From contig CAXXFF010000003.1 in assembly GCA_963676835.2 (NCBI GenBank), positions 768,001 through 832,000 of the forward strand: 64,000 nt of DNA. The letters are read 5' to 3'. A program made the translations under genes and the position numbers. The notes under the pieces are model-generated. The model was not told the DNA's origin. It saw only the letters and a list, made by a program, of their open reading frames with translations, and searched no databases. Below are positions 26,102 to 40,355 of this stretch, piece by piece (positions within the stretch are counted from its first letter, which is position 1; every line of letters starts with the position of its first letter). This stretch comes from Marispirochaeta sp. (GTDB lineage: Bacteria; Spirochaetota; Spirochaetia; JC444; Marispirochaetaceae).

Positions 26102-27520
26102 TTATTCTATGTTAATGCCAAAATATTCTTTCGCATTATTGAACGAAATATCAGCAACCATTTTGCCCAGGAGGTCCATGTCCCGGGGAGCTTTACCCTC
26201 TTCAACCCAGGTTCCCACAATATTGCAGAGAATACGGCGAAAGTAATCGTGTCTGGGGTAGGAGAGAAAACTGCGGGAGTCCGTAAGCATCCCGACAAAA
26301 CGGCTGAGCACTCCCATGTTGGCAAGATCCTTCATCTGCTTCGACATACCGTCTTCATGGTCGGCATACCACCACGCCGATCCAAACTGAACCTTTCCCG
26401 GGACAGAGCCGTCCTGAAAACAGCCCCCGATGGTAATCAGCAGATCATTATCCCGCTGATTCAAGGTATAAAGAATGGTTTTGGGGAGTTCCCCGGTAAC
26501 ATCAAGGGCATCGAGAAAGCGACTTAATGGAGCTCCAACTTCTCCGTCGGCAACAGCATCAAAACCGACATCCGGGCCAAGCTTTGCGAACATACGGCTG
26601 TTGTTATTTCGGAGGGAACTCAGGTGCAGCTGCATTACCCAGCCGCGCTTTGCATTCATACGGCCGAAATGAAGCATCAGGGCTGTACGGAACTTATCAG
26701 CCTCATCCGGGCTGACTGCTGTTCCATCTTTAGCCTTTCTGAAAACAGCCTCAAGCTCACTGTCTGAAGCCGGTGAATAAACCGGAACCAGCAGTGCATG
26801 ATCAGACACACGGCCTCCCATGGAATGGAAGAATTCATGCCGTTTCTCCAGAGCTTCAAGAAGATCATTGAAACTCGAGATTGTCATATTAGCTGAAGCG
26901 CCGAGTCTTTCAAGATACTCAATCCAGGCGGCTCCGGTATCTACCGCCATGGCTCTATCCGGACGAAAAGCCGGAAGCATTTTACTCTTGAAGGTTTGAT
27001 CAGCCGCCACCTGCTGATGGTATTCCAGAGAGTCCGCCGGATCGTCGGTGGTACAAACTGCTTTCACCTTGAAATGGTCCATAATTCCCCGGGCTCGGAA
27101 TTTCTCCTGCCCAAGCATTTCATTCACCTGCTTGTAAATGCCTTCAGCCGTACCGGGATTCAGAACCTTTCCAGCAATACCGAAGGGATCTTTCAGTTCC
27201 ATGTGAGTCCAATGATACAGGGGGTTGCCGATAATCCTGGGGACTGTATCGGCCCAGGCTGCAAATTTATCCCAGTCGGAAACATCTCCGGTGCAGTACT
27301 TTTCTTCGTATCCGTTGGCCCGCATTACCCGCCACTTGTAATGGTCGCCATAAAGCCATATTTCCGTAAGATTCTTAAACTGTTTGTTATTTGCCACCTG
27401 CTCTGGAGGCAGGTGACAATGAAAATCGAAGATGGGCATGCCCTCGGCGTACTCATGATATAAAATCCGTGCTGCCTCATTCTGCAGCATAAAATCATTA
27501 TCCAGAAACTGTCGTGACAT
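26102..27520 (-). CDS. uxaC: Uronate isomerase
   Basis: IFDFHCHLPP, GDHYKWR, GSAWWY, GMLTDSRSFLSYPRHDYFRR. Confidence 0.95.
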   Translation of the reverse strand: MSRQFLDNDFMLQNEAARILYHEYAEGMPIFDFHCHLPPEQVANNKQFKNLTEIWLYGDHYKWRVMRANGYEEKYCTGDVSDWDKFAAWADTVPRIIGNPLYHWTHMELKDPFGIAGKVLNPGTAEGIYKQVNEMLGQEKFRARGIMDHFKVKAVCTTDDPADSLEYHQQVAADQTFKSKMLPAFRPDRAMAVDTGAAWIEYLERLGASANMTISSFNDLLEALEKRHEFFHSMGGRVSDHALLVPVYSPASDSELEAVFRKAKDGTAVSPDEADKFRTALMLHFGRMNAKRGWVMQLHLSSLRNNNSRMFAKLGPDVGFDAVADGEVGAPLSRFLDALDVTGELPKTILYTLNQRDNDLLITIGGCFQDGSVPGKVQFGSAWWYADHEDGMSKQMKDLANMGVLSRFVGMLTDSRSFLSYPRHDYFRRILCNIVGTWVEEGKAPRDMDLLGKMVADISFNNAKEYFGINIE

Positions 27521-27531
27521 GCCCGTCCTCC

Positions 27532-28347
27532 TTAAATATTATGTACCAGATAACCACCGTCTACAGGGATAGAAACGCCGGTTACAAAACCGGATGCTTT
27601 GTCACTGCAGAGAAACAGCAGCGCACCGCCAAGCTCCTGGACATCACCGAAACGGCCGAAGGGGGTATGGGCAATAATAGCCTCTCCACGGGCGGTCAGG
27701 TTTCCGGTAGCTTCATCAAACAGCAGCGCTTTATTCTGTTTTCCGACGAAAAATCCCGGAGCAATAGCATTTACCCTGATTCCGTCTTTAGCAAACTCCC
27801 GGGCACCTGCATAGGTAAGATTAAGAACCGCGGACTTGGCGGCGCCGTAAGCATGAGTACCGGAAAGGGGGATATAGCTTGTCATGGAGGTGAGATTGAT
27901 TATTGATCCCTTGATCTCTTTAGCCTTCCAGTTTTTGACAAAAACCTTGGTGGGAACCATAAGACCGGCTAAAAGATTCAGACGAAGAACATCTTCAAAG
28001 ACATCCATATCAACATCTTCCCAGTCTGATTTACCTTTGTTTCCTCCGGCGGCATTAATCAGAATATCGACGGAACCGAACTGCTTCTCTGTCTCTTCGT
28101 ATCCGGCAATGACTGCGGCTTCATCGCCGGTATCAGCCTTTACCCGCTGCAGCTGGTCCTTAAGCCCTGTAGCATCGGCAAGTTTTGCCAGGTTGGCATC
28201 AATGGACTCATAACGGTGTCCCCAGAGGGAAACATTGGCTCCAGCCCGTAAAAGGGCTTCTCCCATGGCATAGGCGATATTTCCACCTCCGCCGGTAATG
28301 ACTGCGGTCTTTCCTTTTAAAGAAAACATTTCATCAAGATAGCTCAT
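27532..28347 (-). CDS. SDR, probable D-mannonate oxidoreductase (fructuronate reductase)
   Basis: AAGGN, YGAAK, APGFFVGKQNKALL..TARGEAIIAHTPFGRFG; uronate operon context. Confidence 0.75.
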   Translation of the reverse strand: MSYLDEMFSLKGKTAVITGGGGNIAYAMGEALLRAGANVSLWGHRYESIDANLAKLADATGLKDQLQRVKADTGDEAAVIAGYEETEKQFGSVDILINAAGGNKGKSDWEDVDMDVFEDVLRLNLLAGLMVPTKVFVKNWKAKEIKGSIINLTSMTSYIPLSGTHAYGAAKSAVLNLTYAGAREFAKDGIRVNAIAPGFFVGKQNKALLFDEATGNLTARGEAIIAHTPFGRFGDVQELGGALLFLCSDKASGFVTGVSIPVDGGYLVHNI

Positions 28348-28402
28348 ACAAAAAACCTCACTCTCTTTCCTTCTTTTTCAGGTCTATATACGAGGCCGGA
28401 AT

Positions 28403-29158
28403 TCAACCGGCCTGAAGAACCTCAATTCCAAGGGCAACCAGTTCCGGCGCCGCTGTCAGTTCGCTGTCCGAAACAAGCACATCAACAGTCTCGGGTCTGC
28501 CAAAAATCGAAAATGCGGACAATCCCATTTTCCTGGAGTCAGCCAGCACTACAGTACGCTGACTTACCGCAATAACCTGCTGTTTCAGCTGGCTGTCCAT
28601 AATATTATGGGAGCTGAAAACACCTTTTTCCGAAAAAGCTGCCCCCCCCAGAAAACAGGTATTAAACTGAAAATCTTCCAGGTTATGTATAGCCATGGGT
28701 CCGAGAAAACTCCCTGCCGACTTCCGGTATGCACCGCCTGTGGATATTAAACTTATCCCCGGACGATCTGCCAGACGGGTCATAACATCAATGGAATTGG
28801 TAACAACCCTCAACGACATGTGCGCCACCGCTTCAGAAAAAAGCATGCAGGTAGATCCGGCATCAATGAAGATAGTATCATCTTCCCGGACGAGCTCAAC
28901 CGCCCGGGCCGCGATAGCACGTTTGGCCTCAAGATACTCTCCACGGCGGATACTCATGGTCTGCCGGAAACGGTTATCCTGAGCAAGCTCTGCACCCCCT
29001 CTGGTTCTTATAAGAAACCCCATCTCTTCCAGGATGGACAGGTCTTTCCGTATGGTAACTTCCGACACACTCAGCCTGCTGGTCAGTTCTCCGACGCTTA
29101 TACTGCGCAGTTTTGACAACATAGCAAGAATCTCATCCTGCCGCCGGTTTGCTGGCAT
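28403..29158 (-). CDS. DeoR/GlpR family regulator
   Basis: VSEVTIRKDL..RTRGGA, IDAGST, VTNS; promoter TTGACA-17-TACTCT upstream. Confidence 0.9.
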   Translation of the reverse strand: MPANRRQDEILAMLSKLRSISVGELTSRLSVSEVTIRKDLSILEEMGFLIRTRGGAELAQDNRFRQTMSIRRGEYLEAKRAIAARAVELVREDDTIFIDAGSTCMLFSEAVAHMSLRVVTNSIDVMTRLADRPGISLISTGGAYRKSAGSFLGPMAIHNLEDFQFNTCFLGGAAFSEKGVFSSHNIMDSQLKQQVIAVSQRTVVLADSRKMGLSAFSIFGRPETVDVLVSDSELTAAPELVALGIEVLQAG

Positions 29159-29361
29159 TGCTATTCCTTTCATTTTCAGAGTATTACGGAAACATACCCC
29201 TGTCAATGAAAAAATGTAAGGGTTTACAAAGCTTGACTCGGGGCACTTTCCATGGTAAATCTTTCGTTAGAGACCGTAATACATAAGTATTCAAAAGTAA
29301 CCAACCATTATACCTTAACATTTAGTATAAAGAGGGTTTAAGGTGGAAAAAAGGAGTGAAT

Positions 29362-30243
29362 ATGATTGATCCTGTTCAGGAACTTAAGGATTTCAAGCCG
29401 GAAAAAGAGTTTTTCATCGGCATTGATTCCGATGGATGTGCCTTCGATTCCATGGAAATAAAGCACAAGGAATGCTTTTGTCCCCAGTTCATATACCAGT
29501 TCGGACTGCAGGCCGTATCGAAATACGCCAGGGAAGTCTGGGAGTTTGTAAACCTTTACTCTAAAAACCGCGGATGCAACCGCTTCCTTGCCCTGCAGTA
29601 CGCCATGGCCCTTCTCTCTGAAAGAAAGGAAGTAAAAGCACGTAATGTTGAAGTTCCCCTTCTGAAGGACCTCGATGCCTGGGTAAAACGGGAGACAAAA
29701 CTGGGCAACCCCGCTTTTCTGGCAGAAGTTGACCGCAACCCCACGGAAGAACTGAAAACAATCAAGGCTTACTCCCTTGGCGTAAACGAGGTTGTCTCCT
29801 GGTATGTCAAAAATGTTCCCCCCTTCCCCCTTGTACGGGAAAGCCTCGAAAAAATGGTAACAAAAGCCGACGCACTGGTAGTCAGCCAGACCCCCACAGA
29901 AGCTCTGGAAAAAGAGTGGGCGGAAAGCAAAATCGACTCTTATGTTCGTCTTATCGCCGGACAGGAAAGGGGAACAAAAACTGAACATATAAAGTTCGCC
30001 GCCGGCGGAAAGTACGATCCCGAAAAAATTCTGATGATAGGTGATGCCCCCGGTGACTATAAAGCCGCAGCTGGCAACAACGCCCTCTTCTTTCCCATCA
30101 ACCCGGGACACGAAGAAGCAAGCTGGGAAAAACTCTATAACGAAGGCCTGGATAAGTTCTTCAACGGAACCTTTAAAGGGGCCTATCAGGAAGCTCTGTT
30201 AAAGGAGTTTGACACCTACCTTCCCGAAAAACCAAACTGGTAA
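29362..30243 (+). CDS. HAD superfamily hydrolase
   Basis: IGIDSDGC motif I, VVSQT, GTK, MIGDAPGD. Confidence 0.8.
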   Translation: MIDPVQELKDFKPEKEFFIGIDSDGCAFDSMEIKHKECFCPQFIYQFGLQAVSKYAREVWEFVNLYSKNRGCNRFLALQYAMALLSERKEVKARNVEVPLLKDLDAWVKRETKLGNPAFLAEVDRNPTEELKTIKAYSLGVNEVVSWYVKNVPPFPLVRESLEKMVTKADALVVSQTPTEALEKEWAESKIDSYVRLIAGQERGTKTEHIKFAAGGKYDPEKILMIGDAPGDYKAAAGNNALFFPINPGHEEASWEKLYNEGLDKFFNGTFKGAYQEALLKEFDTYLPEKPNW

Positions 30244-30256
30244 GGGCGGGCTGCAG

Positions 30257-31531
30257 ATGCTCTACTACGAAAAGGGATCCGAGAATACCGTTATCGGAAT
30301 GGAGGAACTTTCTTCTATATTGACGGAGGTTCTTGGGAAAATCGGAGAAAAGCAGAAGGTTCTTGCCCTGCCGCCGGACATAACCAGGGCTCACTCAAAA
30401 GCTGGAGAAATTACCTCCATGCTTTATGGTCACTATGGAGAAAAGCTGACCGATATTATGCCAGCCATCGGTACCCACGCACCCATGAGCAGCGAAGAGA
30501 TAGAAAAGATGTTTCCCGGTGTACCGGAAGATCTTTTCCGCGATCACCGCTGGCGAAAGGACTTGTCTACCCTTGGCACGGTTCCCGCTGATTTTGTAAA
30601 GAAACAGACCGGCGGCAAAATTGACTTTGACTGGCCCGCCCAGGTCAATTCACTGCTGGTGGAAGGCGGCCACGATCTGATTGTCAGCATCGGCCAGGTG
30701 GTTCCACACGAAGTAATAGGGCTTGCCAATTACAATAAAAACATCTTTGTGGGAACCGGCGGCCAGGAGGGCATAAACAAAAGTCATTTTATCGGTGCCG
30801 CCTACGGCATGGAAAAGATCATGGGCCGTGCGGATAACCCTGTCCGGGCCATTCTCAACTATGCCTCGGAAGAATTCGGCGGGGACCTTCCCCTGCTCTA
30901 CATTCTGACGGTTGTAGGCCGGGATTCCGACGGCAGCCTTCCAATTCGGGGCCTCTATATCGGCGACGACCATGAATGCTTCTATAAGGCAGCGGAACTT
31001 TCTTTAAAAGTAAACTTTACCATGCTGGAAAAACCCATAAAGAAAGCGGTGGTTTACCTGGATCCGGAAGAGTTCCGAAGTACCTGGCTGGGTAATAAGA
31101 GTATTTACCGTACCAGAATGGCCATAGAAGACGGTGGAGAACTGATAGTGCTTGCTCCCGGTGTAAAAGAGTTCGGAGAGGATGCTGAAAACGACCGCAT
31201 AATACGAAAGTACGGCTACCTCACCACCGACGAAGTTCTGGACTGCACAGCGAAGAATCAGGATCTTCAGGACAACCTTGGAGTTGCCGCTCACCTTATC
31301 CACGGATCACCGGAAAAGAGGTTCAGCGTAACCTATTGCCCCGGCCATCTGACAAAAGAAGAGATTGAAAGTGTGGGCTACACCTATGCCGATCTGTCGG
31401 AAATGCGTAAACTGTATAATCCGGACACCTTAAAAGACGGCTGGAATACTATGCCCGACGGCGAGGAAATCTACTTTATAAGCAATCCTGCCATTGGATT
31501 ATGGGCCGTTAAAGAGCGGTTTAACGATTGA
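30257..31531 (+). CDS. LarA/DUF2088 family epimerase, possible mannonate/gluconate 2-epimerase
   Basis: PPDITR, AIGTHAPM, VVPHEVIG..NKN; lies between uronate genes and gnd. Confidence 0.7.
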   Translation: MLYYEKGSENTVIGMEELSSILTEVLGKIGEKQKVLALPPDITRAHSKAGEITSMLYGHYGEKLTDIMPAIGTHAPMSSEEIEKMFPGVPEDLFRDHRWRKDLSTLGTVPADFVKKQTGGKIDFDWPAQVNSLLVEGGHDLIVSIGQVVPHEVIGLANYNKNIFVGTGGQEGINKSHFIGAAYGMEKIMGRADNPVRAILNYASEEFGGDLPLLYILTVVGRDSDGSLPIRGLYIGDDHECFYKAAELSLKVNFTMLEKPIKKAVVYLDPEEFRSTWLGNKSIYRTRMAIEDGGELIVLAPGVKEFGEDAENDRIIRKYGYLTTDEVLDCTAKNQDLQDNLGVAAHLIHGSPEKRFSVTYCPGHLTKEEIESVGYTYADLSEMRKLYNPDTLKDGWNTMPDGEEIYFISNPAIGLWAVKERFND

Positions 31532-31750
31532 AGCAATAGATCGGGTTTCCCGATCTTTGCGGCAGCGTAAGCTGAGCGGAGGGAGAGGACGACCGTCCGA
31601 ACCCGACCGAAAAAGAAGGAACCCTGCCATCGGGCTGTGGGCCGTTGAAGAGAGATTTAATGATTGAAGCAATAGATCGGGTTTCCCGATCTTTGCGGCA
31701 GCGTAAGCTGAGCGGAGGGAGAGGACGACCGTCAGAACCCAACCGGAAAT
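31484..31750 (+). repeat. 136-bp tandem duplication of the last 16 codons plus downstream hairpin-rich sequence
   Basis: Copies start at 31484 and 31620; tails NPAIGLWAVKERFND* and NPAIGLWAVEERFND*. Confidence 0.9.
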
Positions 31751-31771
31751 GAGATAAATAAGGAGATTTAT

Positions 31772-33232
31772 ATGGCAGAAAAACAGGCGGATATTGGACT
31801 TATCGGTCTTGCAGTAATGGGACAGAATCTTGTCCTCAACATGAATGACAACGGCTATACCGTAGCAGTCTTCAACCGTACAGTAAGCAAGGTTGATGAT
31901 TTTCTTAACGGTGCGGCCAAAGGCAGGGATACAATCCTCGGAGCCCACTCCATGGAAGAGTTTGTGGCAAGCCTTAAACGCCCCAGAAAAGTAATGCTCA
32001 TGGTCAAAGCCGGTGATGTAGTAGACAGCTTTATCGATATGGTACTGCCCCACCTGGAAAAAGGTGACTGCATCATCGACGGAGGAAACTCCCACTTCCC
32101 CGATACAATCCGCAGAACAAAAACCCTTGAAGAGAAAGGTATTCTCTACATCGGCACCGGTGTTTCCGGCGGTGAAGAGGGCGCCAGAAGAGGCCCTTCC
32201 ATGATGCCCGGAGGAAACAAGAAAGCATGGCCTCTGGTAAAGGATATTTTCCAGTCAATCGCTGCAAAAACCGACGATGGCGAGCCCTGCTGTGACTGGG
32301 TTGGAGAAGACGGCGCAGGTCATTACGTGAAGATGGTGCATAACGGAATTGAATATGGTGATATGCAGCTCATCTGTGAGGCCTACATGCTCATGAAGAA
32401 TGCCCTGGGCATGGATGCCGATGCAATGCATGAAGTGTTCAAGGATTGGAACACCGGCGACCTTGACTCCTACCTGGTTGAGATAACCCGTGATATCCTG
32501 GGATTTAAAGATGATGACGGATCGGCTCTGGTGGAAAAGATTCTCGATACAGCCGGCCAGAAAGGAACCGGGAAATGGACCGGTGTAAGCTCTCTGGACC
32601 TTGGTGTTCCGGTAACCCTTATTGGCGAAGCCGTTTTTTCCCGCTGTCTTTCCGCAATGAAGGACGAACGGGTTGAAGCTTCAAAAGTACTGAGCGGCCC
32701 GGATGCCACCTTCTCCGGAGACAAAAAAAGCTTTATCGACGACATCCAGAAGGCTCTTCTTGCCAGTAAAATTGTCTCATATACCCAGGGGTACATGCTC
32801 ATGCGTGAAGCAGCCAGAGAGTACGGCTGGAACCTCAACTACGGCGGCATAGCCCTTATGTGGCGGGGCGGCTGTATTATCCGTTCTGTTTTTCTGGGCA
32901 AGATCAAAGATGCCTTCGACAAGAATCCGGAACTGAATAACCTGCTGCTGGATGACTGGTTCAAGAACAAGATTGATGAGTGCCAGGCCTCCTGGCGAAG
33001 GGTTGTTTCAAAGTCTGTCGAGCTGGGTATTCCCATGCCGGCGTTCTCCACTGCCCTGGCTTTTTATGACGGCTACCGTAACGACCGTCTTCCAGCCAAC
33101 CTGCTTCAGGCACAGCGGGACTACTTCGGTGCCCACACCTACGAACGGGTGGACAAGAAACGGGGTGAATTCTTTCATACCAACTGGACCGGCACCGGCG
33201 GCGATGTATCCGCCAGCACCTACGAAGTCTGA
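31772..33232 (+). CDS. gnd: NADP-dependent 6-phosphogluconate dehydrogenase
   Basis: GLAVMGQN, VKMVHNGIEYGDMQ, GQKGTGKW, QAQRDYFGAHTY. Confidence 0.96.
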   Translation: MAEKQADIGLIGLAVMGQNLVLNMNDNGYTVAVFNRTVSKVDDFLNGAAKGRDTILGAHSMEEFVASLKRPRKVMLMVKAGDVVDSFIDMVLPHLEKGDCIIDGGNSHFPDTIRRTKTLEEKGILYIGTGVSGGEEGARRGPSMMPGGNKKAWPLVKDIFQSIAAKTDDGEPCCDWVGEDGAGHYVKMVHNGIEYGDMQLICEAYMLMKNALGMDADAMHEVFKDWNTGDLDSYLVEITRDILGFKDDDGSALVEKILDTAGQKGTGKWTGVSSLDLGVPVTLIGEAVFSRCLSAMKDERVEASKVLSGPDATFSGDKKSFIDDIQKALLASKIVSYTQGYMLMREAAREYGWNLNYGGIALMWRGGCIIRSVFLGKIKDAFDKNPELNNLLLDDWFKNKIDECQASWRRVVSKSVELGIPMPAFSTALAFYDGYRNDRLPANLLQAQRDYFGAHTYERVDKKRGEFFHTNWTGTGGDVSASTYEV

Positions 33233-33251
33233 TACACCATTAAGTCTGCTG

Positions 33252-33280
33252 AAGCACCCTGAAAACAGGGTGCTTTTTTT
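33252..33280 (+). terminator. Intrinsic terminator of gnd
   Basis: aagcaccctg-aaaa-cagggtgctt followed by T run. Confidence 0.85.
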
Positions 33281-33301: not shown

Positions 33302-33330
33302 TTGACGAACTGTGGTTTGAGGACTACATT
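33302..33330 (+). promoter_or_regulatory. Sigma70-type promoter
   Basis: TTGACG-17 bp-TACATT. Confidence 0.7.
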
Positions 33331-33335
33331 TAAAG

Positions 33336-33588
33336 TGTTGGATGTTTCTAACAAGGAGGCAACCGATGGAAGCACCGCCTAAACAGGTGTGCCGGGATTA
33401 GCCCCGGCGTGTACATATTGTGTTGTTTGAAATCAGATTAAGAACGGAGGCGCCTATAGAACCACCCTATAGAGTAGCTTACCGAAAAGGTAATTCGAGC
33501 TCATAACGAGCAATAACGAGATACCAGTTCTGTGAGAAATCACACAAAAGAACGATATTTACAAGCCGGCCTCAGGCCGGCTTTTTTT
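33336..33588 (+). ncRNA. Candidate stand-alone structured small RNA (may encode an 11-aa peptide)
   Basis: Own promoter and terminator, about seven local hairpins, no long ORF; AAGGAGG-ATG micro-ORF at 33366-33401. Confidence 0.55.
33563..33588 (+). terminator. Intrinsic terminator
   Basis: aagccggcc-tca-ggccggc followed by T7. Confidence 0.85.
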
Positions 33589-33651
33589 ATACGCCTGAAA
33601 TAATCAGATCAGAAATTTGCGATCCCTGCCTCAATTTTCTACAATTTAATC

Positions 33652-33825
33652 ATGATGAACGGAGACATAGACAGGATTACCGGCAGAATTGAAAGTCTGC
33701 TGCAGCGTCTGGGCTTGTTTATCAAGCATGAAGAGCTGGAACCGGAACATTACTTTGATCCCTTTCACCGGCTGAATTTTTCCGAAGGGGAAATCAGGAA
33801 GCTTCAGAGAGCAAGCAGGAACTGA
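33652..33825 (+). CDS. Candidate 57-aa small protein (leaderless)
   Basis: MMNGDIDRITGRIESLLQRLGLFIKHEELEPEHYFDPFHRLNFSEGEIRKLQRASRN; TTGCGA-17-TACAAT-6 nt-ATG. Confidence 0.45.
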   Translation: MMNGDIDRITGRIESLLQRLGLFIKHEELEPEHYFDPFHRLNFSEGEIRKLQRASRN

Positions 33826-34738
33826 ACAACTCCCTGAAATGATCCTCTCCCTTTCCGTTGCCGGGAACGATTATAACAATCCCCACACTCTCGGGGCGCT
33901 CCTCAAGTTTTCCCAGAGAAACAGAATCACCGACACAGTCAATCTGATAATACCCACCCTCAGCCGCTGCAACCGCACCTTTGACACGGTAGCTTTCTTT
34001 TGCGGTACGAACCAGAAATTCTCTGAGAGCAGTTTCATTCAAGGGACCATCTGGTAATATCACATAATTTTTGGGCCGTCCGGCATTTCCCCATCCCATG
34101 TAAGAGGAATCAAGATCAGGTGTAGATGGTGCTTTGCTGATCATCGATTCAATTTCACCGAATGAAATATTTCCAAAAGAGGTTTTGCGTATCTCTACAG
34201 AATCATTGGCAGTTAGAATAAGGCTTTCTGCGGCCGATACTTCATCTTCCGAACATTGATCGATCTTATTGAGAACAACAGCTCCGGCATAGCGGATCTG
34301 CTCGCTGATTACCTGTACACTTTCATGCAGAACAGGCAGTCTGGGAGCATCAACAACGGTTATAAGTCCACCGAAATGTATTGCCCCCGAGGTGGTTTTC
34401 TCCACCCCGGCTGACAGATCCTTCAGTGTAGCCGGCTTTGAAAGGCCGGAACACTCGGCAATAATAAGGTCCGGCTTTTTTTCCGCCAGCTGGATTAACG
34501 CTGACGACAGAGGCCCGGCAAGGCAGGAACAGAAGATCTGACCGTTATTCAGTTCAAAGATATCTCCTTTTTTCCTGCCCTCCTCTTCTACTCTTCCCGC
34601 ATCTACTCCAATTGAACCAAACTCATTGATTATCAGCCCCGCAGTCCGGTCTCCCAGGGTTGCGAGCAGTTTGTTTAAAACCGTGGTTTTGCCGGATCCA
34701 AGGAAACCGGCAATAAAGTAGAGGGGAATACCTGTCAT
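33794..34738 (-). CDS. CobW/COG0523-family G3E GTPase (metallochaperone)
   Basis: GFLGSGKTT, INEFG, CSC, ECSGL, LNKID, YRVKG. Confidence 0.88.
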   Translation of the reverse strand: MTGIPLYFIAGFLGSGKTTVLNKLLATLGDRTAGLIINEFGSIGVDAGRVEEEGRKKGDIFELNNGQIFCSCLAGPLSSALIQLAEKKPDLIIAECSGLSKPATLKDLSAGVEKTTSGAIHFGGLITVVDAPRLPVLHESVQVISEQIRYAGAVVLNKIDQCSEDEVSAAESLILTANDSVEIRKTSFGNISFGEIESMISKAPSTPDLDSSYMGWGNAGRPKNYVILPDGPLNETALREFLVRTAKESYRVKGAVAAAEGGYYQIDCVGDSVSLGKLEERPESVGIVIIVPGNGKGEDHFRELFSSCLLSEAS

Positions 34739-36085
34739 TTACATTACCTCATCAATCGCGCCGAAGAGTTCGTCACGGCTGGGAATAATAGAAGAGTACT
34801 TCAACTGTCCGTTGATGTATATACTGGGCAGCTGCTTTACTCCCATAGCTCCGCAGCGGGCGATATTTTCCGGGCTGGTGTACTTGTACTCGACCACATC
34901 AATCTTGTCACCATACTCTTTTTTCGCATCCATAGCAGAAGCCATCATATAAGTACAGGCGGCACAGGTAGTTGAATCCAGGGTAAAGACCTCAACAAGA
35001 GGACGTTCCAGGTTTTCATAATCCGGCAGCTCCCCCTCGAATACCAGATCCTCTTTCGAGTAGTTGGCAACCATGGACCGGACTGCCGCGGTATTATGCA
35101 CCGCCTGTTCAGCACCGATGGTATTTTCCACAGGAATGGCATAAGGCATATCGCAGCCGGGGGAGATAATCAGGTTATCGTGGGAAACTGAATCCATAAG
35201 GTCGATTACCGCTTTCATATTGTCCTGCTGATTTCCAAAAAGCATAATCGATGTGAGGGGAATATTTCCCGCCAGCACTACATCGTATTTGTCAGTAACC
35301 TCTTTGGCAGTCGCAAGATTCACGTTTTCATCCACTGAGATATTATCCGGCTTTGTGAGACACATTGGTTCAATATTATTGGTCGCATTCCCACAGACGA
35401 AGAAGGAGGAAAATACTCCTTTTGCCCGTATATCGGCAAAGAGCTCGGAAAAGGGGTTTTCCATAAACTCCTTGAAATGGTCCGGTGAAATCTGGGAGAT
35501 CAGGGGATCGACAACAGCCACAACATCCATTCCGGCTTCGATAAAGTATCCCGCCAGTGTTTTTGCAACCTTGTTACAGTAATCCAGAAGATTATGAACA
35601 TAGTCAGGATTCAGGATCATGTCCATAAACAGGTTGGTACCGCGCAGATGGGATGCCAGGGTAAAAGGACCGCAGAGCAGACCATATAACGCAGTATCTT
35701 CTCCAACTGCTGCTTTCATCCGACGCATCACATTCAGCTCCAGCCCGAGTCGTCCATCATCGGGGGCAGGAATCTTATCGGGGATTTCGTCAATGTCAGA
35801 CAGAGGATGGGTGGAGACCGTGGGAGGTGCATCTTCGGACCAGACAAGATCACATCCCAGGATTTCAGCCTCTACCTGCAGGTCAAACATAACCGGCTGA
35901 CCATCCGGTTTATAGAGCTTGTTAACTTCCAGGAGTGATTCAAACAACTTATCTCCATCGGTGGAGACTTCTTTTGCAGTATAGTCCTTGAGCCGTCCGG
36001 CATGAACCCCGGCAAAAGGTACCCAGGGTACATTATCGGGAATACCATTCCCCATGACTGTATAAATTCGTTCCTTTCCTGTCAT
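34739..36085 (-). CDS. MtaA/UROD-family methyltransferase fused to a C-terminal thioredoxin-like domain
   Basis: VEAEILGC, GPFTLA, FVCGN, AGNIP, SPGCDMP; C-terminal CAAC..GVKQLPSIYING. Confidence 0.82.
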   Translation of the reverse strand: MTGKERIYTVMGNGIPDNVPWVPFAGVHAGRLKDYTAKEVSTDGDKLFESLLEVNKLYKPDGQPVMFDLQVEAEILGCDLVWSEDAPPTVSTHPLSDIDEIPDKIPAPDDGRLGLELNVMRRMKAAVGEDTALYGLLCGPFTLASHLRGTNLFMDMILNPDYVHNLLDYCNKVAKTLAGYFIEAGMDVVAVVDPLISQISPDHFKEFMENPFSELFADIRAKGVFSSFFVCGNATNNIEPMCLTKPDNISVDENVNLATAKEVTDKYDVVLAGNIPLTSIMLFGNQQDNMKAVIDLMDSVSHDNLIISPGCDMPYAIPVENTIGAEQAVHNTAAVRSMVANYSKEDLVFEGELPDYENLERPLVEVFTLDSTTCAACTYMMASAMDAKKEYGDKIDVVEYKYTSPENIARCGAMGVKQLPSIYINGQLKYSSIIPSRDELFGAIDEVM

Positions 36086-36154
36086 AATTCCTCCAAAGAG
36101 CAGAAGCAGGTAATTTTAATGGCGACGATTTTTGTCGTATTAAGTGTGAAAATG

Positions 36155-36178
36155 AACCCGGCTTTTATGAGCCGGGTT
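36155..36178. terminator. Intergenic hairpin
   Basis: aacccggct-tttatg-agccgggtt. Confidence 0.5.
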
Positions 36179-36202
36179 AAGTCAGATCAGTACTGATAAA
36201 TC

Positions 36203-36838
36203 TCAGCTTGCACAGGCAGCTACGGCAGCTTCAGCAGCGGTAGTTGCATCGGCAGTGTAGATATCCGCGCCGATTGAATCACAGAAATTCTTGGTAACCG
36301 GTGCGCCGCCGACCATAATGGTTACGGAATCACGCATTCCGGCTTCTGTAGCCGCTTTTACAACATTTTCCATTTCGGTCATGGTTGTTGTAAGAAGGGC
36401 TGAGCAGGCTATAACCTGTGCACCCTGTTCCTGTGCCGTGGCAATAAATTTCTCAGAAGGAACATCAGCGCCAAGGTCGATAACCTCAAGCCCTTTTCCT
36501 TCCATCATAATTTTAACAAGGTTCTTGCCAATGTCATGGAGGTCGCCTTTTACCGTTCCAAGAACAACCTTACCCTTTGAATCGGAAGCATCACCCACCA
36601 TGTGGGGCTTCAGAATTGCAATACCTGCATTCATAGCCCGGGCGGCTATAAGTACTTCAGGTACATATACTTCGTTCTTCTTGAACCGTTCTCCGACAAC
36701 GCCCATACCGAGCATAAGTCCTTCGTTCAGTATTTCTTTTGCACTGCTTCCGTCATCCAGAGCCTTCTGACAAAGGTCAGCAACCTCTTTGGCTTTTCCT
36801 TTCTGCAGCATTTCTGATATTTCATTCCAGTCAGCCAT
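36203..36838 (-). CDS. Corrinoid (B12-binding) methyltransferase protein, MtaC/MtbC-like
   Basis: GDLHDIGKNLV, SALLTTT, VGGAPV. Confidence 0.93.
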   Translation of the reverse strand: MADWNEISEMLQKGKAKEVADLCQKALDDGSSAKEILNEGLMLGMGVVGERFKKNEVYVPEVLIAARAMNAGIAILKPHMVGDASDSKGKVVLGTVKGDLHDIGKNLVKIMMEGKGLEVIDLGADVPSEKFIATAQEQGAQVIACSALLTTTMTEMENVVKAATEAGMRDSVTIMVGGAPVTKNFCDSIGADIYTADATTAAEAAVAACAS

Positions 36839-36939
36839 TCCATCTCTCCTTTCGGCATATAGTTTATTATCAGGTCAAAATTCCATTCCGGTATTGAAAA
36901 AAAACGTTTCTTTTGGAAGTTTTTTAGGCAAAAACAGGA

Positions 36940-38223
36940 TTAACGATGAATTTCCTGACTATCCCCGCTGATTCTGCCCCGGGATTCCCGGTACCGACCG
37001 GGGGTGACACCGGAGACCCGCTTAAACACTTTGGAAAAGTAGGACTGATCTTCATAGCCCACCATGGCAGCAACATCCACCAGAGGAATAGTTGTATTCC
37101 GAAGTATATCCCGGGCCTTATCGATTCGGTACTTATTGAGATAGTTATTGAAGCTTACCTTCATCTCTTCCTTGAAAACCTTGGAGAAATAAGCGGGAGA
37201 TAAGTAGACTTCACCTGCAACGGCATCGAGGGTAATCTTGTCCGCATAATTGCTGTGAACATACTGGACAGCCCGGTATATTGCATCTGCATGTTTTACC
37301 TCACGAAGATCAAAGACGAAATCGGTAAATCTGAGCATTATACGGGAAAGCCAGGCGGCAAGATCCTCAACGGAGGAAAAGGTGTTTATCTGCCTGAGAT
37401 AGCGGAGATTAAGACCGAATATCTGTTCGACCTCTGCCCCGCCTTCAACAGCCGCCCTGGAGAGAAGGACAACCAGTTCAAGCACCCGGGACTGAATAAC
37501 CTCAAGATTTCGACCGGAAGAGAAAAAGACACTGCCGAGGATTTCATTCAACAGCTGCTGAGAGCCCTTCTTGTCGCCCCTGGAAATAAGGCTCAGAAGT
37601 TCCCGTTCTTTCTCAAGAGGATACTGATGGGTGTGACTCTCCTCTGCTTCCTTGATGTACTGTATATATTCGTTAATTCTTGACTGCTGCGCCAGGGCTT
37701 CGGATGTTACACTGAACCGGGTATCCGCCTGAAGAGAAAGGTGCTCCGCGGCAACTGCAAGCATTTCACTTAAGGCGGTTACTTTCTCGGGAGTAACCCG
37801 TGCAATGGAGTTCAGATTTTTCAGCAGCTGATCAGTATCAAAGTCTACTTCATGTTTACGCTTAAGCTCATCGATAACCTCTTCCGGCTCAATCATAAGC
37901 GCCGGTCCGCCGACCAGAGATCCCTGCATAATTCCGTCAATAACAATCGGGGAAGCCCAGTGGACGAGAGAAACCGGACAGAAATAGATGTATTTGCCCC
38001 CGAAGCGTTCAGCCTGGTACCCGCCCCAGAGATGCACCTGATGACAGTTCAGCTTATCATGCAGTACCGGCTGCAGGCCGCTGCAGAATCGGCAGCTCTC
38101 GCTGGCAAAGAGAATATCACCCTTGTTGTCTATAACAGAGCAGCTGCAGCCTGTTGCCTTGGCATAAAAACCTGCAATACGCCGGGCCCGCTCCCAATCG
38201 AGTTCGTTAGCACCATTATCCAT
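36940..38223 (-). CDS. PocR sensory domain / AraC family regulator
   Basis: CRFC..C..YIYFCP PocR cysteines; LSPAYFSKVFK..GYEDQSYFSKVFK. Confidence 0.88.
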   Translation of the reverse strand: MDNGANELDWERARRIAGFYAKATGCSCSVIDNKGDILFASESCRFCSGLQPVLHDKLNCHQVHLWGGYQAERFGGKYIYFCPVSLVHWASPIVIDGIMQGSLVGGPALMIEPEEVIDELKRKHEVDFDTDQLLKNLNSIARVTPEKVTALSEMLAVAAEHLSLQADTRFSVTSEALAQQSRINEYIQYIKEAEESHTHQYPLEKERELLSLISRGDKKGSQQLLNEILGSVFFSSGRNLEVIQSRVLELVVLLSRAAVEGGAEVEQIFGLNLRYLRQINTFSSVEDLAAWLSRIMLRFTDFVFDLREVKHADAIYRAVQYVHSNYADKITLDAVAGEVYLSPAYFSKVFKEEMKVSFNNYLNKYRIDKARDILRNTTIPLVDVAAMVGYEDQSYFSKVFKRVSGVTPGRYRESRGRISGDSQEIHR

Positions 38224-38253
38224 AATATTGTATGCAACTATACCAGACTTTTT

Positions 38254-40083
38254 CTATTGAGGAAAGAACATCTGCTCTACATATCTGTCCTGAAATTTCG
38301 GCGAAGCCGAAAGCTCAATATACTCCACCTTCGAAGCCAGAGTACCCAGGCGCATATAACTTTCCTCTGAAAGCAGAACCTGAACAGCCCCTGCCCCGGC
38401 GGTGTTCCCGGCAGCAACGATTTTCTCCTCTATTTCACCGGGAAGAAGTCCGATCCCGACGGCGCTGGCGGTATTGATAAAACTGCCGAAGCCGCCGGCG
38501 AGAAAAACCTTGTCAATTTTTTCAGGGCCGATTCCATACTCCTCAAGGAGTATATCTATCCCCGCAGCAACAGATGCCTTGGCCAGCTGTACCTCCCGCA
38601 CATCCCGGGGAGTAAAAATCAGGGGCTGATTATGCCGGTCGGTGGCAAAGATAAAACCGTCTTCAGTCACTCTGGAGGCAAGTACAGATGGAACATTTTC
38701 CGGCAGTTCATCCGGAGGCAATAAGCGTCCGGTGTAGTCCACAATGCCTGTTTCAATAAGTAGTGACGCAAGATCGATTATGCCGGACCCGCAGATACCG
38801 GCAGGCGTTTCACCGGCTATGGTGCTTATCGCAAGATCCTTTTGGGGGCTTAAAGTCACAACGCTTACTGCTCCGGGAATCCCGCCCAGACCACAGGAGA
38901 TGGTAGCACCCTCAAATGCCGGTCCTGCTGCAGTGGAACAGGCAATCATCCGTGAAGAATCACCGATAACCAGCTCACCATTGGTACCCACATCAATAAG
39001 CAGAGACGGCTTATCACAATCCATGAGCCCCGCGGCAGCGATACCGGCGGTAATATCTGCTCCGATAAAACCGGAAATAGACGGAAGCAGAATAACCGGA
39101 AGATACCGGGGAATACGGGGAAAAAGCTGATAACTCGATTCTATGCGCTTTTCGGTAAAAACAGGAATAAAAGGAGAAACCGCAATGTGGCGCGGATCGA
39201 CACCCGCCAGTAGATGCATCATTACTGTGTTACCCGCAACAGCAAGTCCCCGCAGGTCCTCCCAGGGAATCTCTTCTTCTTCGACAAGGCGGAAAACCAT
39301 GGTGGAAATCTGTCTGGCTATTGCCCGCTGCAGCGGTTCCGGACCAGACTCGCTTGCCGCCTGTACCCGTGAGATGACATCCCCTCCCCAGGCCTTCTGC
39401 ATATTGAGGCCCGAGACTACCCGGCAGATATCGCCGTCAGACAGATTGACCAGATAGGCAACTACCGTAGTGGTCCCGATATCAATAGCAATCCCATAAC
39501 CCGGCCCCGCCTCGGGAGACAAAACGCCCCACAGATGCCCCTCCAGGGTAGAGATTTTAAGACCATCTCTGTTTTTCCGCATCATAAGCATCAACTCTTC
39601 GAGAAGAGGAAGCGGAACTGAGGCATCCTCTATTCCATGCTGCTCTTTCAGAGCCTCACGAAAACGTACCGCGTCGCAGCGCTGGTCCTGTAAGCTGGGT
39701 TCCGACAGAATTATGGGCGCTGTTTTCAAAGGAGAATCAATAGCCCCTGCGTAGACTTTATGCTCTGTAACAATCTTCACTCCGTGGGAAGTAAAAAGAG
39801 GTGTAACGGTTAAATCTCCGGTAACCTTGACCATACAGGCTAAACGCTCCCCTTTTTCCAGTGAAACCGGAGAAAGAAATTTTGTCTCCTCCGTACAGGG
39901 AGAGGGAACTGAAGATCCCTCAAGGAGAACCCTGCATTTACCGCAGGTACCATTGCCGCCGCAGGGGGCATCAAAATCGAAATCTTCAAAGCCCTGCAGC
40001 GCTTCCAGCAGGTTAACACCGGATTCAACTGTCCGGGTTTCTTCGAGACCTTCTCTGAGCAGAGTGAGTTGTATGGTGTTCAT
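38254..40083 (-). CDS. Reductive activator of corrinoid proteins (RACo, 2Fe-2S plus ASKHA)
   Basis: CGGNGTCGKC, DIGTTT, DVGTNGE, GPAFEG, GICGSG, QLAKA, LAGGFG. Confidence 0.9.
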   Translation of the reverse strand: MNTIQLTLLREGLEETRTVESGVNLLEALQGFEDFDFDAPCGGNGTCGKCRVLLEGSSVPSPCTEETKFLSPVSLEKGERLACMVKVTGDLTVTPLFTSHGVKIVTEHKVYAGAIDSPLKTAPIILSEPSLQDQRCDAVRFREALKEQHGIEDASVPLPLLEELMLMMRKNRDGLKISTLEGHLWGVLSPEAGPGYGIAIDIGTTTVVAYLVNLSDGDICRVVSGLNMQKAWGGDVISRVQAASESGPEPLQRAIARQISTMVFRLVEEEEIPWEDLRGLAVAGNTVMMHLLAGVDPRHIAVSPFIPVFTEKRIESSYQLFPRIPRYLPVILLPSISGFIGADITAGIAAAGLMDCDKPSLLIDVGTNGELVIGDSSRMIACSTAAGPAFEGATISCGLGGIPGAVSVVTLSPQKDLAISTIAGETPAGICGSGIIDLASLLIETGIVDYTGRLLPPDELPENVPSVLASRVTEDGFIFATDRHNQPLIFTPRDVREVQLAKASVAAGIDILLEEYGIGPEKIDKVFLAGGFGSFINTASAVGIGLLPGEIEEKIVAAGNTAGAGAVQVLLSEESYMRLGTLASKVEYIELSASPKFQDRYVEQMFFPQ

Positions 40084-40355
40084 ATATAGAAAGAATGGTA
40101 TCATGGGTCTGAAAATTCGGCATGGTATATAACGGTGAACCTTAGTAAAAAGTTATCATCTTCACTGCAAATACCTCAAGATCCGATTGATACTACCGAT
40201 TCTAACATGTATCATATCATATACATCAACAGAAAAAAGTGCTTCCGGCAGAAAACCAAATCTACCGGAAAATGAAATTTTCTCGATGTTATGTATATCA
40301 ACAATAAAGAGATATATGAAACTTTCACCTACATGCAAGTGAGGCGTTCAACAAC

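Follow-up and report, generated by a model that had tools for sequence, protein, structure and literature searches.

Sequence comparison supports the presence, in the spirochaete Marispirochaeta sp., of a real stand-alone structured RNA gene that is conserved and previously undescribed. The layout conserved among its homologues consists of a Shine-Dalgarno (SD) motif, a start codon, zero to five codons, two proline codons (Pro-Pro), 10 nt, and a 5-bp hairpin. The distance from Pro-Pro to this hairpin is held to the base, and we tentatively propose that a ribosome pause at Pro-Pro controls how an RNA acting in trans folds or what becomes of it.

RESULTS

A candidate RNA gene downstream of gnd

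The window analysed here is a 64,000-nt stretch of the Marispirochaeta sp. genome, and all features of the RNA unit given below lie on its + strand. The unit begins with a sigma70-type promoter (33302..33330; -35 box TTGACG, 17-nt spacer, -10 box TACATT) and ends with an intrinsic terminator that has an A-rich 5' side (33563..33588, stem 33563-33583), and the gnd terminator (33251-33276) lies upstream of the promoter. A preliminary description of this DNA had claimed this promoter, a strong second terminator, and a gnd terminator ahead of them, and all three are in the sequence where it placed them. The two promoter boxes are conserved in 7/7 genus copies, the spacer between them drifting, and 40 of the 47 family members have a similar promoter-like site in front, with predicted transcripts of 152 to 300 nt. 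From promoter and terminator, a discrete transcript of ~250 nt is predicted at 33337..33588, its putative start being set by the -10 box. A 299-nt stretch folds better than 200/200 shuffled sequences (z = -4.75).

Upstream, a hexuronate cluster (26102-33232) includes a LarA-like N-terminal-domain protein (30209-31531), a HAD hydrolase, and gnd. Downstream, a 57-amino-acid (57-aa) ORF without an NCBIfam match (33652-33825, + strand) follows a promoter-like site (33617-33645); it begins ~6 nt past the -10 box and is probably leaderless, and related ORFs of 57 to 65 aa lie downstream of the RNA in four other genus genomes. A corrinoid methyltransferase-type cluster on the - strand (33794-40104) encodes a CobW-like protein, a URO-D fused to a thioredoxin-like domain, a B12-binding protein, a PocR-AraC regulator, and a RACo activator.

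No family of Rfam release 15 reaches its gathering threshold at the locus, where the 15 weak matches at E <= 10 are all far under threshold and mostly on terminators. Rfam gave no matches on 13 homologous or candidate loci, and ARAGORN found nothing in the 64-kb window. The tmRNA, RNase P RNA, and SRP RNA were each located elsewhere in the genome above the model threshold. The hallmark of 6S RNA is a long rod with a central bubble; the locus is a chain of local hairpins with no RF00013 match, and a 6S-like long helix closing 5' on 3' end is absent from the genus consensus fold. The models bear out the earlier remark that the unit resembles none of these four RNAs, and its reading as an undescribed small RNA (sRNA) gains support from the Rfam check, which returned no confident family. 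Genome-wide, RF00013 was without a match, though the tmRNA, RNase P, and SRP RNAs were found, and 6S RNA may be divergent or missing in this genome. An open-access-weighted literature search found no description of this RNA family, and the accessible text of PMC8632094, PMC5737381, PMC10319736, and PMC13734083 gave no match; in that of PMC8632094, Leptospira is the only spirochaete genome.

Distribution across Spirochaetia

BLAST recovered the unit in 5/5 other genus genomes at 68 to 94% identity. In each of the five it follows gnd, and in one (G004) two other genes intervene. In that genome (L022, G004:C1:1104174-1110121), two near-identical complete RNA genes, from promoter to terminator, flank a 5.6-kb cassette of an AraC-type regulator, a TRAP transporter, and one more gene, as if the RNA had been duplicated on insertion. 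A first model built on seven genus copies gave weak matches in other families, which shared the SD, the ATG, Pro-Pro, a GCCGG hairpin, and a terminator. Among 151 genomes sampled from the class Spirochaetia, a second model built on 17 sequences matched 62, of which 52, from 20 of 46 families, were kept after inspection, each with a single copy except G004. Ten genomes with E <= 0.001 were dropped (six on inspection, four as terminator-only partial matches) together with two second matches, and one weak member (G088, E 2.5e-4) was accepted by eye. Conservation in relatives, on which the preliminary description had made its claim depend, is found in these 52 genomes. Among the genomes searched, no true match was found in families f26 (0/6), f12 (0/6), f27 (0/6), and f19 (0/5). 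The 47 members analysed below are 45 of the 52 (minus five genus genomes and two near-duplicates) plus G447 and L155.

A pattern search of the phylum matched 12 of 401 genomes, five of them true and all five in the class; a model search matched 7 of 151, and the four outside the class are without Pro-Pro and the hairpin. L155, from a Spirochaetaceae metagenome-assembled genome, is the one member among the 117 loci listed for a loose pattern in a named genome collection, a listing that is uninformative on absence from other phyla. Viral contigs gave 58 pattern matches, one in frame and none with a terminator. In metagenomes, a pattern allowing 3, 4, 5, or 6 nt between ATG and Pro-Pro returned 43 loci; all 19 given to the model scored, with a gap of 3 or 6 nt, and 18 have a terminator-type end, and a terminator was called in none of seven out-of-frame matches. 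One metagenome contig (L259) combines an SD, M-N-D-P-P, and a hairpin at the family register with a long ORF and no called terminator, and it may be a diverged or cis-acting relative. The RNA gene looks vertically inherited across the 20 families.

A mini-ORF conserved in frame and Pro-Pro

The SD motif AAGGAGG (33353..33359) stands 6 nt before the start codon of the mini-ORF MEAPPKQVCRD* (33366..33401), exactly as first described. Its Pro-Pro codons, CCG CCT (33375..33380), are the invariant core of the family: Pro-Pro occurs in 46 of 47 members, the exception (G131) having Pro-Thr. An SD-linked start is in frame with Pro-Pro in 46/46 members, including 31/31 outside the training set, counts in which the members are kin and not independent events. 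The gap from start to Pro-Pro is 0 nt in 4 members, 3 nt in 19, 6 nt in 20, 9 nt in 2, and 15 nt in 1, and alternative start codons are used in four of the 46 (GTG in three, TTG in one); these five gap classes and the alternative starts must have arisen several times. At least two codons precede Pro-Pro in 23/46 members, the window copy included. As a control, SD-ATG-CCNCC combinations arising by chance in this genome were counted: 204 of 540 are in frame, and only the present locus combines frame and hairpin.

Third positions of the proline codons vary (first codon, 28 CCA and 18 CCG; second codon, 31 CCT, 7 CCG, 5 CCA, and 3 CCC). The first codon is CCA or CCG in all family members versus 38% of the genome's Pro-Pro pairs in a crude ORF set, and never CCY, which makes up 62% of those pairs; CCG is a common codon in this genome. 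Because pairing between the Pro codons and the SD is possible (p > 0.5 in 27/47 members), the bias at the first codon may avoid a perfect anti-SD, and such pairing, as a constraint at the RNA level, may be a partial cause of the codon bias.

The peptide itself varies from 9 to 22 aa, and only Pro-Pro and an Arg imposed by the hairpin recur, the residues following Pro-Pro being mostly K, V, and Y. The stop codon lies 12 to 57 nt past Pro-Pro in 46/46 members and never directly after it; in 30 of the 46 it lies at +15 or +18 nt, in the hairpin loop, as in the window copy. Even within the genus, the TAG stop is replaced by CAG in four genomes (G002, G003, G005, and G006), where the ORF has 22 aa, so that the 11-aa length is local. 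The MEAPP frame, whose conservation had been proposed as a check, is therefore kept as a frame with Pro-Pro, but neither the sequence MEAPPKQVCRD nor its length is. Judged by these comparisons, selection on the reading frame is limited to SD, start, and Pro-Pro, with the peptide as a probable by-product.

A hairpin at a fixed register

The hairpin, P2 (33391..33408), begins exactly 10 nt after the second Pro codon, and the mean pairing probability across members, 0.29 at +10 past that codon, is already 0.98 at +11. Its five pairs are kept in 47/47 members, with partners taken from each member's own fold. The stem is GCCGG in 38/47, two-sided changes occur at four positions, and in two members (G037 and G088) this position is occupied by a stem of wholly different sequence; in two others (G108 and G131) the register is one base short. 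With the second Pro codon in the P site, the P2 stem starts at +14. According to the accessible part of a published study, the bacterial mRNA channel accommodates 11 nt beyond the first base of the P site, with frameshift stem-loops acting as a block at 11 to 12 nt and not at 13 (PMC7282821). A stem at +14 facing an 11-nt channel would place P2 just outside a ribosome paused at Pro-Pro, as the next obstacle that it would meet; EF-P reaches such paused complexes via the empty E site, as stated in the accessible text of PMC12856214. A spacing held to the base points to a coupling of ribosome position with RNA fold, and the fixed P2 register is the fact that discriminates between mechanisms.

Leader and 3' domain

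In the genus, the 5' leader (33337..33352) pairs with the SD/start region in a consensus helix that carries two compensatory G-C to A-U changes in G003. The SD is paired with the leader at p = 0.84 in this genome, an arrangement seen in 6/47 members and not family-wide, and in a comparison with 362 control genes SD occlusion did not stand out (p = 0.33). Of 24 members with long leaders, such as L312, L313, and L324, 22 have an SD-like motif without a start codon within the first 18 nt, against 3.2 expected.

Past P2 come a hairpin of variable form and an A-rich linker; (G)UGAG often follows, and a long, irregular helix then precedes the terminator. In the window, the long hairpin P3 (33445..33483), a genus-level feature, holds the second, SD-like GGAGG (33446) and the ATA (33456), and the irregular helix P4 (33518..33560) abuts the terminator. 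A helix at the place of P4 recurs in the family with a changed sequence. The middle domain is better folded than shuffles in 45/47 members (median z, -2.0; below -2 in 23), and the 3' domain retains its shape across the family, not its sequence. Covariation, another check proposed at the outset, was found in part: the genus consensus fold has 64 pairs, five with two-sided change, P4 shows a C-G/U-A change at columns 208-226 of that alignment, and P2 varies on both sides as described above, and across families the alignment of P4 is out of register.

Several details of the preliminary description turned out to be local. Its chain of hairpins is in the sequence, but ttacc-gaaaa-ggtaa falls outside the minimum-energy fold; the gttgga/tctaac and tgtga-GAAA-tcaca hairpins and the tandem ATAACGAG, which we find at 33503 and 33513, are present here but not kept in G002, G003, G005, and G006. 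The duplicated motif GGAGGC..CC.AT.GAA.CACC is literal in its first copy, but the second (33446) needs a one-base-shorter spacer. That second, ATA-bearing copy does not hold up as a conserved element: its frame gives Pro-Pro only here and in G004, not in the four other genus genomes or L155.

Genomic context and EF-P

We scanned 77 of 91 picked neighbour ORFs. The gene uvrC lies directly upstream in 14 members, and this position is probably the ancestral site. Downstream neighbours are of at least 18 kinds, 15 of them convergent where identified (14 proteins and one tRNA), and no downstream gene is shared across the family; no cas family was found among the 77 ORFs scanned. EF-P is present in 5/5 genomes tested. 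The RNA occurs in 51/121 genomes with an EpmA-like gene (E < 1e-40, a cut of our choosing) versus 1/30 without, the genomes being kin and not independent, and 70 of the 121 EpmA-positive genomes gave no RNA match. This co-occurrence fits a link to EF-P and is confounded by kinship and genome size.

DISCUSSION

We propose, at somewhat less than an even chance of being right, a model in which a Pro-Pro ribosome pause gates the fold or the fate of a trans-acting RNA. It is supported by the unit's own promoter and terminator, the selection on frame, the hairpin at a fixed distance, the structured 3' domain, and the lack of a common neighbour. Of the three functions suggested in the preliminary description, Pro-Pro stalling is the one that the family bears out. 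A ribosome would load on the SD, make a peptide of three to five residues, and pause at Pro-Pro, the length of the pause depending on EF-P activity and the supply of Pro-tRNA. During this wait P2 would stay folded, being just beyond the mRNA channel, and the next translocations would melt it, ending at a stop that usually lies in the P2 loop. The choice between pausing and proceeding would set the fold, processing, or lifetime of the RNA, whose P3-P4-terminator domain would act in trans. The partner in trans would more likely be a protein than a base-paired RNA because the 3' domain keeps its shape and not its sequence. The RNA itself would be the output of this sensor, the peptide being a by-product. 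If so, cells would monitor or throttle elongation via a dedicated trans-acting RNA. To our knowledge, only leaders controlling the next gene are known to use proline pausing as a sensor, and its one known use as a weapon is in a CRISPR-linked RNA toxin. The 52 natural variants yield a design rule, with the start codon zero to five codons ahead of Pro-Pro and the hairpin at +14, by which the mechanism of the proline-codon toxin and a feedback on EF-P activity become directly testable.

An alternative is a trap for ribosomes, EF-P, or tRNA-Pro, similar to the Pseudomonas aeruginosa toxin CreT but domesticated, in which an abundant RNA would keep ribosomes stuck on Pro-Pro in front of the hairpin and slow bulk translation, e.g., in starvation, and the 3' structure would only protect the RNA. 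We regard it as possible but on balance doubtful. It stays strong because the minimal parts are those that inhibit translation in trans (an SD, ATG, one codon, CCT CCG, and a hairpin inhibit growth and in vitro translation in P. aeruginosa, according to the accessible part of bioRxiv 10.64898/2026.06.02.729485) and because of the extra SD-like motif in long leaders; a 3' domain conserved in shape and the lack of a cis target among scanned neighbours also agree with it. The preliminary suggestion of an anti-SD decoy belongs here, with partial support from the start-less motif of the leaders; the downstream ATA copy is local to the genus and one other record. Against a trap, the stop lies at least four codons past Pro-Pro and not directly after it as in CreT, and the spacing to the hairpin is fixed, whereas CreT is indifferent to 15 extra nt. 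Half of the members with Pro-Pro have at least two codons before it, whereas in the accessible description of CreT, post-ATG indels are toxic only for a 3-nt deletion. No Cas1, Csy3, or DevR-type Cas7 was found in this 97% complete genome, and neither a minus-strand promoter nearby nor a significant antisense partner. An inhibitor inherited vertically as a single copy and driven by a consensus-like promoter would need a brake; none was found, and SD occlusion is at the level of control genes. The proposed sensor and the trap are not mutually exclusive. It is also conceivable, though we would not count on it, that the RNA is the spirochaete member of an unrecognised class of stand-alone bacterial RNAs, housekeeping "Pro-Pro pause RNAs", reporting or titrating EF-P-dependent elongation in trans, of which the CRISPR-linked proline-codon toxin would be a weaponised offshoot.

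The other explanations are improbable to varying degrees. An mgtL-like leader-peptide attenuator of read-through into the next gene, which we consider improbable, could draw on the GCCGG/CCGGC shared by P2 and terminator in most members, which on paper allows a 2:3 antiterminator, and on same-strand downstream genes kept in some families (EEP nuclease-like in four, gyrase B-type in three). But downstream genes otherwise differ and 15 are convergent, one of these a tRNA, leaving no conserved same-strand gene to regulate, and the next ORF in the window has its own promoter-like site. An antiterminator was rejected, as P2 and terminator do not covary (deviations in G036, G037, G041, G048, G073, G087, and G088 are not mirrored in the partner) and the terminator still forms in 15/17 folds with the 5' strand of P2 blocked; GCCGG terminators are, besides, common in this genome (15). 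We give little credence to a base-pairing sRNA in which a C-rich CCRCCN motif would be the seed for SDs of target mRNAs: the motif could pair with an SD, and Borrelia sRNAs employ C-rich seeds (PMC13734083, in its accessible part), but a seed gives no reason for the frame with a start codon in 46/46 members or for third-position variation, and no member has the perfect anti-SD CCUCC at its first Pro codon. That the unit is the mRNA of a functional small peptide is very improbable. The strong SD and conserved frame would suit it, but the length and the stop position of the peptide shift, the stop even inside the genus, and only Pro-Pro and the imposed Arg recur; with a product that is not conserved, the RNA is not dual-function in the sense of SgrS. 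Least credible is a CsrA sponge, as also suggested previously, with hardly any probability left to it. Sponges of the CsrB/RsmY/RsmZ type carry many GGA motifs beyond chance, in loops. The genome has csrA, and the GGA triplets noted earlier are present, but these five are not enriched (4.56 expected, p = 0.52), and over the 47 members GGA after the SD (118 versus 144.7 expected) and ANGGA (26 versus 38.3) fall under expectation, 15 members having 0 or 1 GGA there.

Comparison with known systems

The dual-function RNAs SgrS/SgrT, SR1/SR1P, and RNAIII are stand-alone and carry a small ORF; their peptides are conserved effectors, whereas that of the spirochaete RNA is not conserved. Salmonella mgtL and SecM resemble it in using a proline-driven pause as a sensor that remodels RNA, but, according to the accessible text of PMC12856214, both sit 5' of one fixed gene as its leader, whereas the spirochaete RNA has its own terminator and no common downstream gene. 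The haloarchaeal RNA toxin CreT, which sequesters rare tRNAs, shares the SD, an efficient start, two like codons, and a stable stem-loop; it uses rare Arg or Ile codons and is under CRISPR control in the accessible part of PMC8501985, whereas the spirochaete RNA uses CCA and the common CCG.

The closest likeness is to CreT1/CreT2 of the P. aeruginosa type I-F CRISPR system, small stand-alone RNAs with an SD, a start codon, a near-start Pro-Pro, and a GC-rich hairpin, in which, as far as the accessible text goes, the peptide is not the effector. There, SD, mini-ORF, and hairpin are all required, and Pro-Pro is followed at once by the stop in a 15-nt mini-ORF, 15 extra nt before the hairpin changing nothing (bioRxiv 10.64898/2026.06.02.729485, accessible part). 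CreT is encoded within a cas operon, with CreA as its silencer, whereas no cas gene stands beside members with identified neighbours, and neither the 77 neighbour ORFs nor the searches of this genome for Cas1, Csy3, and DevR-type Cas7 gave a sign of such a linkage; the sole array-like signal in the genome is a 3-copy repeat with 77- to 78-nt spacing (G000:C3 near 467350-467520). The spirochaete RNA has the SD, the start, the two Pro codons, and the GC-rich hairpin, and differs in its fixed 10-nt spacer, an ORF that runs into the hairpin with no stop directly after Pro-Pro, a larger 3' domain, and vertical inheritance. It works like CreT at its core and departs from it in two defining features, and we do not file it as CreT. 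Altogether, the RNA family is real and undescribed, a variant of the mini-ORF RNAs and possibly a new regulatory class.
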